The notes below the pieces were generated by a model. It did no database searches and was not told where the DNA came from. It worked only from the letters and a program-made list of their open reading frames with translations. The translations under genes and the position numbers were made by a program. This document shows, piece by piece, positions 16,976-17,202 of a DNA stretch of 64,000 nt (the first letter of the stretch is position 1; each line of letters starts with the position of its first letter). Source of the stretch: Escherichia coli (lineage in GTDB: Bacteria > Pseudomonadota > Gammaproteobacteria > Enterobacterales > Enterobacteriaceae). The stretch is from NCBI RefSeq assembly GCF_046105845.1, contig NZ_CP151004.1, one strand, 5' to 3'.

Positions 16976-16985
16976 GTTTTACGTA

Positions 16986-17015
16986 AAAACCCGCTTCGGC
17001 GGGGTTTTGCTTTTG
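16986..17015 (+). terminator. rho-independent terminator of rnpB
   Basis: AAAAACCCGCTTCGGCGGGGTTTTTGCTTTT hairpin plus T-run. Confidence 0.85.
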
Positions 17016-17100
17016 GAGGAGCGGAAAGATGAATGACTGTCCACGACGCTATACCCAAAAGAAAGCGGCTTATCGGTCAGTTTCACCTGGTTTAACGAAA

Positions 17101-17138
17101 ACCCGCCAGCGTAAACTGGCGGGTTTTTGCTTTTTGGA
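17101..17138 (+). terminator. second rho-independent terminator after reiterated rnpB 3' segment
   Basis: AAAACCCGCCAGCGTAAACTGGCGGGTTTTTGCTTTTT. Confidence 0.8.
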
Positions 17139-17202
17139 GCATAGTGTAAGATGAATAAATATCTGCGGTATTAATAATAGACTTTGTAAGAAGTTATTAA
17201 GT

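Follow-up and report, generated by a model that had tools for sequence, protein, structure and literature searches.

The gene for RNase P RNA in Escherichia coli is followed, in the DNA analysed here, by sequence that looks like its own 3′ end over again. This raises two questions: how did these partial copies arise, and what, if anything, do they do today? We addressed both in a window of 64,000 nt from contig NZ_CP151004.1, the whole stretch of DNA that was analysed. An initial annotation made from the letters alone had described reiterated rnpB 3′-end segments beside an AT-rich islet, and its claims are taken up below where the evidence bears on them.

The rnpB 3′ end is repeated downstream of the gene

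Directly preceded by garK, rnpB is complete in the window, and the name is also given to it in matching E. coli records. On its other side yhaC (17203-18390, minus strand) converges on it. The region between the two genes can be divided as follows.

16599..16975, + strand: rnpB, RNase P RNA (M1 RNA), bacterial type A (Rfam RF00010, 318.6 bits, full length 1-367)
16926..17026, + strand: repeat unit 1, 101 nt, which begins with the 3′-terminal 50 nt of rnpB and continues with a linker, T1 as terminator and GGAGGAGCGGAA as spacer (alignment with unit 2, unit decomposition, and direct-repeat families D1-D3 and D5)
17027..17148, + strand: repeat unit 2, 122 nt, which begins with a damaged rnpB 3′ end and continues with a linker, T2 as terminator and GGAGCATAGTGTA as spacer (repeats, alignment, unit decomposition)
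17048..17059, + strand: 12-nt insertion GCTATACCCAAA (alignment)
17149..17156, + strand: stub of a third unit, AGATGAAT, 8 nt, cut by the yhaC 3′ flank (repeat family D2)

Two exact direct repeats link the first two units, namely AGATGAATGACTGTCCACGAC at 16926-16946 and 17027-17047 (21/21) and GGCTTATCGGTCAGTTTCACC at 16954-16974 and 17067-17087. Dinucleotide shuffles of the window produced 0 chance matches to either. Moreover, a base-by-base alignment of the last 50 nt of rnpB with the downstream copy (17027-17088) shows identity at 48/50 positions, and the linker at the end of rnpB, the terminator and the spacer can likewise be aligned between unit 1 and unit 2. The units are therefore homologous to the rnpB 3′ end, as had been proposed, and the coordinates originally assigned to them were right to within 1-3 nt. 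Tandem Repeats Finder detected nothing in the repeat region, because the two copies differ by indels; a repeat search and pairwise alignment were used instead. The cores of the two units are spaced 113 nt apart (family D1), whilst unit 2 measures 122 nt from its start to the stub. A longer type of terminator gives it this length instead of the 113-bp period, and the repeat is the same one in another allelic form.

The copy differs from the rnpB tail by one 12-nt insertion (GCTATACCCAAA, 17048-17059), which occurs once in the window, and by a CC-to-AG change at 17064-17065. Both hit the 3′ strand of helix P4 (ACAGAACCCGGC), a strand that is universally conserved in RNase P RNA. With this strand ruined, the copy cannot serve in a working ribozyme, and judged by its sequence the rnpB segment of unit 2 is a dead copy. 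RF00010 scores the unit 2 region at 19.8 bits as a 3′ fragment; the only match in Rfam 15 to reach its gathering score was RF00010 at rnpB itself, with unit 2 falling below the threshold.

What had been read as the beginning of a third, truncated copy follows T2 after a 13-nt spacer. This stub, AGATGAAT, reads AAGATGAAT when taken from 17148. Eight bases alone are weak evidence, but they stand at exactly the position expected of the next unit, and the AGATGAATAAATATCT boundary ends all 6 of the yhaC-bearing E. coli loci examined. Moreover, Escherichia lineages that bear the array and lack yhaC-yhaB have a longer unit (GATGAATGACTGTCC...) at the position of the stub. It is therefore a true unit start. 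We also considered the stub as a pre-existing microhomology that seeded the duplication, which was rejected given the longer terminal units and the yhaB-side remnants in other Escherichia.

The number of units varies between strains

Unit 2 was used as a megablast query against 5,426 complete E. coli genomes. Matches were found in 3,743 of them, at 1-8 places per genome (median 2) and always on the chromosome, leaving ~31% of genomes with no extra unit. At an identity of at least 99%, unit 2 was matched in 819 genomes. The loci that we compared individually range from 0 to 5 extra units: none in a B2 strain, which retains the AGATGAAT boundary, one in O157:H7 and in the window, two in C41(DE3)/BL21 and five in strain A12. 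K-12 has three units of 113 nt and one more with its terminator decayed and invaded by REP sequence. Variation in copy number between strains, suggested at the outset, is thus a property of the locus.

Reed and Altman are said to have described the K-12 repeat behind rnpB in PNAS in 1983, as 113 bp present in 3.5 copies and containing open reading frames. By alignment, the window shares with K-12 the locus, the unit start (AGATGAATGACTGTCCACGAC), the 12-nt insert, the core and a terminator in each unit. It differs in having one full extra unit rather than three and a REP-interrupted one, in a unit of 122 nt rather than 113 nt, and in the absence of REP/BIME sequence. In the last K-12 unit (L001 3345-3500) a decayed long-stem terminator is split by two REP-like palindromes (BIME), whereas the terminator in the window is intact and has no REP. 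The window therefore carries a short, one-extra-unit allele of the rnpB 3′-flanking tandem repeat of E. coli, which is already known in kind.

Two types of terminator circulate in the array, one with a short stem (TA, CCCGCTTCGGCGGG) and one with a long stem (TB, CCCGCCAGCGTAAACTGGCGGG). Their order is TA then TB in the window and TB then TA in Salmonella Kentucky, and in E. coli CRE1540 rnpB is followed by TB. A hairpin of the T2 type directly after rnpB is also found in E. albertii, E. whittamii and cryptic clades, besides Salmonella Kentucky and CRE1540. S. houtenae and S. diarizonae have a collapsed rnpB-TA form with no extra unit.

Units would be gained and lost by unequal homologous recombination or replication slippage between the identical blocks of 21-25 nt. 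We infer this from arrays that differ by whole units and from chimeras that swap terminator types. Unequal recombination is the most likely mechanism for the change in copy number, reading backwards from these end-states.

Each unit has its own terminator

16976..16980, + strand: linker at the rne-dependent 3′-processing position, GTTTT here versus GATTT in K-12 (sequence compared with K-12)
16983..17014, + strand: terminator T1, core stem CCCGC/GCGGG at 16990-17003, U-tract broken by a G at 17004 (two-strand terminator scan, folding)
17096..17139, + strand: terminator T2, 14-bp stem and 6-nt loop, then TTTTTGCTTTTT (terminator scan, inverted repeat I4, folding)

The scan and the folding both recovered one terminator per unit, in agreement with the initial annotation. 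T1 and T2 each have an A-tract upstream and a U-tract downstream, and T1 was flagged by the scan on both strands. The T2 hairpin (17096-17129) folds at -24.3 kcal/mol (z = -3.9), with 8 of its 14 pairs being G-C. T1 has a stem of 5 G-C base pairs and a tract that opens with G, and its fold reaches -15.4 kcal/mol compared with -19.4 kcal/mol for T1 of K-12.

This G, at 17004, is the first position of the U-tract, and with it the hairpin loses 4 kcal/mol. The closest allele (strain N3) and K-12 both have T here (GGCGGGGTTTTG in the window versus GGCGGGTTTTTG), and position 17004 is the sole difference between the window and the N3 allele over 16950-17030. No exact match to 16950-17030 of the window was found in the 5,426 complete genomes. 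The G may be a true strain-specific change or a sequencing error. By the rules for intrinsic terminators, a T-to-G change in the tract probably weakens T1, and T2 would then matter more here than it usually does. The K-12 rnpB T1 has been employed as a terminator (PMC3643576); the allele in the window differs from it at 17004.

The linker ahead of T1 also differs from that of K-12, at the position where, according to the passage of PMC3937726 that cites Kim et al. 1996, GAUUU is the rne-dependent 3′-processing site. The GTTTT form is shared with E. coli N3 and with the third unit of K-12.

As rnpB has a strong stable-RNA promoter, T2 could act as a second, stronger terminator that stops polymerase which has passed T1, and in the reverse direction it could insulate rnpB from yhaC, which converges on it. 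The terminators are the sole parts of the unit with an obvious activity, and they stand between a strong promoter and a convergent neighbour; on these grounds the likeliest present-day effect of the array would be back-up termination, possibly in both directions. The repeat is dispensable and its role in termination possibly marginal, given that no extra unit is present in ~31% of E. coli genomes or in some Salmonella subspecies. Tandem terminators of the rrnB T1-T2 type are comparable in that two Rho-independent terminators likewise lie in series behind a strongly transcribed stable-RNA gene. They differ from the window, where the second terminator is packaged with a dead gene 3′ end and strains are not alike in how many terminators they have.

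The rnpB 3′ end is an empty site for genomic islets

16956..16967, + strand: attB core CTTATCGGTCAG in the rnpB 3′ end, unoccupied (the same 12-mer forms attL/attR of the islets in L123, L124 and L125)
17069..17080, + strand: attB core CTTATCGGTCAG repeated in unit 2, where its left flank (aaaagaaagcgg) is not that of the first copy (att comparison)
L123 8992-18184, L124 11992-21026 and L125 14992-21101: rnpB islets of 6-9 kb with a tyrosine integrase, YagK/YfjJ, an invertase, and flagellin with a phase-1 repressor or other cargo

Metagenomes were scanned with a unit-specific 20-mer, giving 86 stretches, of which 80 were analysed (L037-L116). At least 9 of the 80 have foreign DNA, and not rnpB, ahead of CTTATCGGTCAGTTTCACC, the terminator and the array. 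The order in one stretch, L051, is rnpB, a tyrosine integrase, a YagK/YfjJ protein, an invertase, flagellin, a phase-1 flagellin repressor, IS fragments, a second core and then the array; its left end was matched in 31 of the 5,426 complete E. coli genomes. Annotated islets lie between rnpB and yhaC in CFSAN061761 (integrase of 486 aa), ECC-1470 and Z1323CEC0007 (different cargo). The islet integrases are 56-73% identical to one another. All these islets are bounded by direct repeats of CTTATCGGTCAG, with a core of 12-20 nt, the first within the rnpB 3′ end and the second directly followed by the array. At the left junction the islet sequence provides a workable P1 strand. Islet junctions of Klebsiella and Citrobacter type are also present among the metagenome loci.

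The window itself has no tyrosine integrase beside rnpB, the order being rnpB, T1, unit 2, yhaC. Its positions 16944-16987 (gacagaacccggCTTATCGGTCAGtttcacct...) equal the left half of the L125 attL joined to the right half of the attR, that is, the predicted empty site, and its two cores (starting at 16956 and 17069) enclose only 101 nt of terminator and unit sequence.

The rnpB-targeting islets found here match the flk genomic islet, which is already known. The work of Feng et al. 2008 on it is summarised in PMC3378880 and PMC5422975: according to the former, the tyrosine recombinase Orf486 excises the flk islet through direct repeats, and the latter places FlkA/FlkB of ECC-1470 on an islet. 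The flk islet (E. coli H3/H35/H36/H47/H53) and its kin occupy the same spot as the empty site of the window, within CTTATCGGTCAG bounds. In contrast, the window has neither islet nor integrase, and its tandem units are unlike the islet arms; in none of the genomes surveyed do such units serve as integration sites.

In E. coli the rnpB tail is replaced by an islet arm (attL of L123 and L124, CTTCAACTTCTTCTAAAAC) that resembles the native unit tails of another enterobacterial lineage (CTTCAACTACTTCTAAAAC; L044, L047 and L067). This resemblance suggests that the islets came from a different host genus.

The yhaC-yhaB stretch is probably not a recent insertion

17157..19105, - strand: AT-rich yhaC-yhaB stretch, 28-39% GC, convergent with rnpB, with yhaC at 17203-18390 (composition profile, ORFs, PGAP names in matching records)

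The idea of an RNA-gene-associated integration hotspot had leaned on the neighbouring AT-rich stretch. The hotspot stands, by virtue of the integrase islets at the rnpB 3′ end and their CTTATCGGTCAG direct repeats. The yhaC-yhaB stretch does not count as evidence for it, since it has neither an integrase nor a flanking rnpB repeat: no Pfam domain was found in yhaC or yhaB, no integrase was found in the stretch, and no rnpB-derived repeat was found beyond it at up to 3 mismatches. Homology with lineages lacking yhaCB resumes near 19105-19144. B2 strains have yhaC and yhaB as pseudogene fragments only. In a comparison of L007, L009 and L030, tdcR-proximal remnants were seen in E. albertii and a cryptic clade, and three other clades are cleanly deleted from inside the last unit. 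The survival of these remnants suggests that yhaC-yhaB is old and has been deleted repeatedly, rather than recently inserted.

In Klebsiella pneumoniae (L025 8287-10436) the genes that come after the array are one with an OB-fold (tRNA_anti-like), one for an LTXXQ protein and one for a pirin, with no yhaC-yhaB-tdc. As these neighbours differ, the DNA to the right of rnpB depends on the genus, while the array is kept.

The units are not scars of present-day islets

Given that islets enter at this very site, the units might themselves be traces of integration. Under such an explanation an ancient element with a long block of identity, from AGATGAAT to the rnpB 3′ end, would have supplied a new 3′ end and terminator, and the displaced old end would have decayed. 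Loss of the interior of the element would then have left rnpB, terminator, spacer, dead 3′ end and terminator, and integrase recombination between the cores could alter copy number. Several features are in keeping with this. Gene-fragment duplications beside tRNA and tmRNA genes arise by element integration; integrase islets demonstrably use rnpB as their attB in loci of E. coli, Citrobacter and Klebsiella type; the core CTTATCGGTCAG is present in every unit; and the array lies at the edge of a region with genus-dependent gene content. However, neither the unit nor the rnpB sequence upstream of the core is significantly similar to the islet arms, with shuffled sequences scoring equally in about half of the trials. 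Moreover, none of the 5,426 genomes has an islet attL inside a unit, the unit was not found in any phage, viral contig or true plasmid, and there is no rnpB fragment on the far side of yhaC-yhaB. Plain tandem duplication yields the same structure. We therefore regard an origin of the units by integration as unlikely.

The lack of junctions within units, the dissimilar arms and the absence of phage, virus or plasmid carriers together argue against the islets seen today; on these comparisons, the units are not scars of present-day islets. An older element with a longer block of identity is possible as their source. The locus does resemble tRNA and tmRNA 3′ fragment duplications in having a partial stable-RNA 3′ copy downstream of an intact gene, at a site used by integrases. 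Unlike those, the rnpB copies stand in a tight tandem of fixed period, carry their own terminators, have no element DNA between them, and are altered beside the core.

Three related candidates were rejected. A role for the units as decoy attB sites was searched for with a chimeric query of unit and islet arm, and no such junction was found in 5,426 genomes. An islet scar had been suggested by a 9/11 match (AGATGCCTGAC versus AGATGAATGAC), which is no better than that of shuffled sequences. Lastly, a phage origin of the unit fails because the matches in phage collections are misfiled host DNA, and IMG/VR gave no exact matches. Among the database records, OR851195.1 (L034, UNVERIFIED_ORG) and AGRM01000002.1 (L036, a Salmonella houtenae contig) are chromosomal DNA filed as phage. 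Several records labelled as plasmids, of 0.35-5.4 Mb, are bacterial chromosomes or fragments of them, and matches to these are no sign of mobility.

A small open reading frame in unit 2 is probably not a gene

17029..17154, + strand: 41-codon ORF with a GGAGG Shine-Dalgarno-like motif, running through T2 (ORF list)

The unit could be read as coding, each one specifying a small basic peptide (41 aa here, MNDCPRRYTQKK...) with a stop that overlaps the start of the next unit (ATGA). The GGAGG motif lies 9 nt upstream of the ATG of this ORF, the units of K-12 have the same arrangement of ORF and GGAGG, and the ORFs reportedly noted in the K-12 repeat by Reed and Altman in 1983 would point the same way. 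Set against this, the frame is disrupted by the loss of 1 nt in Klebsiella and of 2 nt in E. albertii and a cryptic clade, C. amalonaticus has no ATG, the Shine-Dalgarno motif is missing in Salmonella and in clade strains, and the first seven codons are plain rnpB sequence. With frame or start lost in four lineages, the ORF at 17029-17154 is probably not a gene, and we consider it very improbable that the units encode a peptide.

The dead unit is conserved across genera

The dead unit is not confined to E. coli. With the same insert, it occurs in E. albertii, E. whittamii, cryptic Escherichia clades, Salmonella enterica, three Citrobacter genomes and Klebsiella pneumoniae, and it is also found in many enterobacterial metagenome lineages. 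The 19-nt segment that does not derive from rnpB (17048-17066) is identical at 19/19 positions in Salmonella, 17-18/19 in Citrobacter and 17/19 in Klebsiella, compared with ~70% identity across the same genera in the linker, terminator and spacer. Within each genome the unit terminators are similar to the terminator of rnpB; uniform flanks could be maintained by copying from rnpB, whereas the insert could not. A back-up terminator needs no dead rnpB segment ahead of it, and the higher conservation of this segment is not accounted for by our best explanation of the locus.

One explanation would be that the unit is a functional RNA or DNA element, for example an sRNA or a processing signal made from read-through transcripts. 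The identity of 17-19/19 in the 19-nt segment, set beside ~70% in the adjoining parts, would favour this, as would the many enterobacterial metagenome lineages with insert-bearing arrays. In that metagenome set, however, 8 of the 19 insert bases were dictated by the search pattern, and conservation is overstated there as a result. Moreover, the unit is absent from ~31% of E. coli genomes and from several Salmonella subspecies, no promoter-like site was detected in it, a predicted inner hairpin is broken by a common G-to-A variant, and the Rfam matches are below threshold and driven by the terminator. We therefore think it distinctly unlikely that the unit is such an element. A more speculative version would have an Hfq-binding RNA formed by the A-rich insert AAAAGAAAG and the U-tail of the terminator. 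Put more broadly, the dead unit might be an old element under selection in Enterobacteriaceae, either as an sRNA or processing module made from read-through or as something that interacts with the islets, such as a non-permissive attB look-alike; its sequence leaves this, too, with a small chance of being right.

Amongst named RNA families, permissive Rfam searches aligned unit 2 with the rnk leader (26.8 bits against a cut-off of 55), the rimP leader and the Thr leader. These were rejected, as it is the terminator hairpin that carries the alignments. The proposal that a conserved hairpin surrounds the insert was rejected likewise, its pairing being broken by the common G-to-A variant.

Some arrays depart from the E. 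coli form. Five metagenome stretches of one lineage (L044, L047, L063, L082 and L090) have arrays in which as many as 5 units recur every ~128 nt and the spacer is a different one (…GGTTGAAACACGGGCAG); in these the insert is GCTATACC, which the search pattern required, followed by the same conserved AAAGAAAGC. In Salmonella arizonae (L014), ~50 nt past rnpB, the terminator is interrupted by sequence starting CTGAGGGATCCCC…, which we take to resemble the end of an IS10/IS4-family element. In Citrobacter sp. Awk 4 (L018) the unit terminator is replaced by ~150 nt that contain long inverted repeats (GCTTCGGCTAACACCGTTAACTTAAGC … GCTTAAGCTAACGGTGTTACC) and may be a miniature inverted-repeat element.

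Conclusions

Taken as a whole, the locus is best explained as an allele of the rnpB-flank repeat, with copy number driven by recombination, a back-up terminator and an empty islet site, and we hold this explanation to be highly probable. The region should be annotated accordingly, as an rnpB 3′-flanking repeat with one extra unit and a second terminator, and neither as an RNase P fragment of obscure meaning nor as a small protein gene. The number of units and the order of terminators could serve as a simple typing marker for the locus. Only two leads appear worth following up, the conservation of the dead unit across genera and the strain-specific change in T1. The T-to-G change predicts more read-through than in K-12, and the allele thus offers a natural test of how important the second terminator is. 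Lastly, with its attB empty, this strain could take up flk-type islets, which switch the flagellar antigen.
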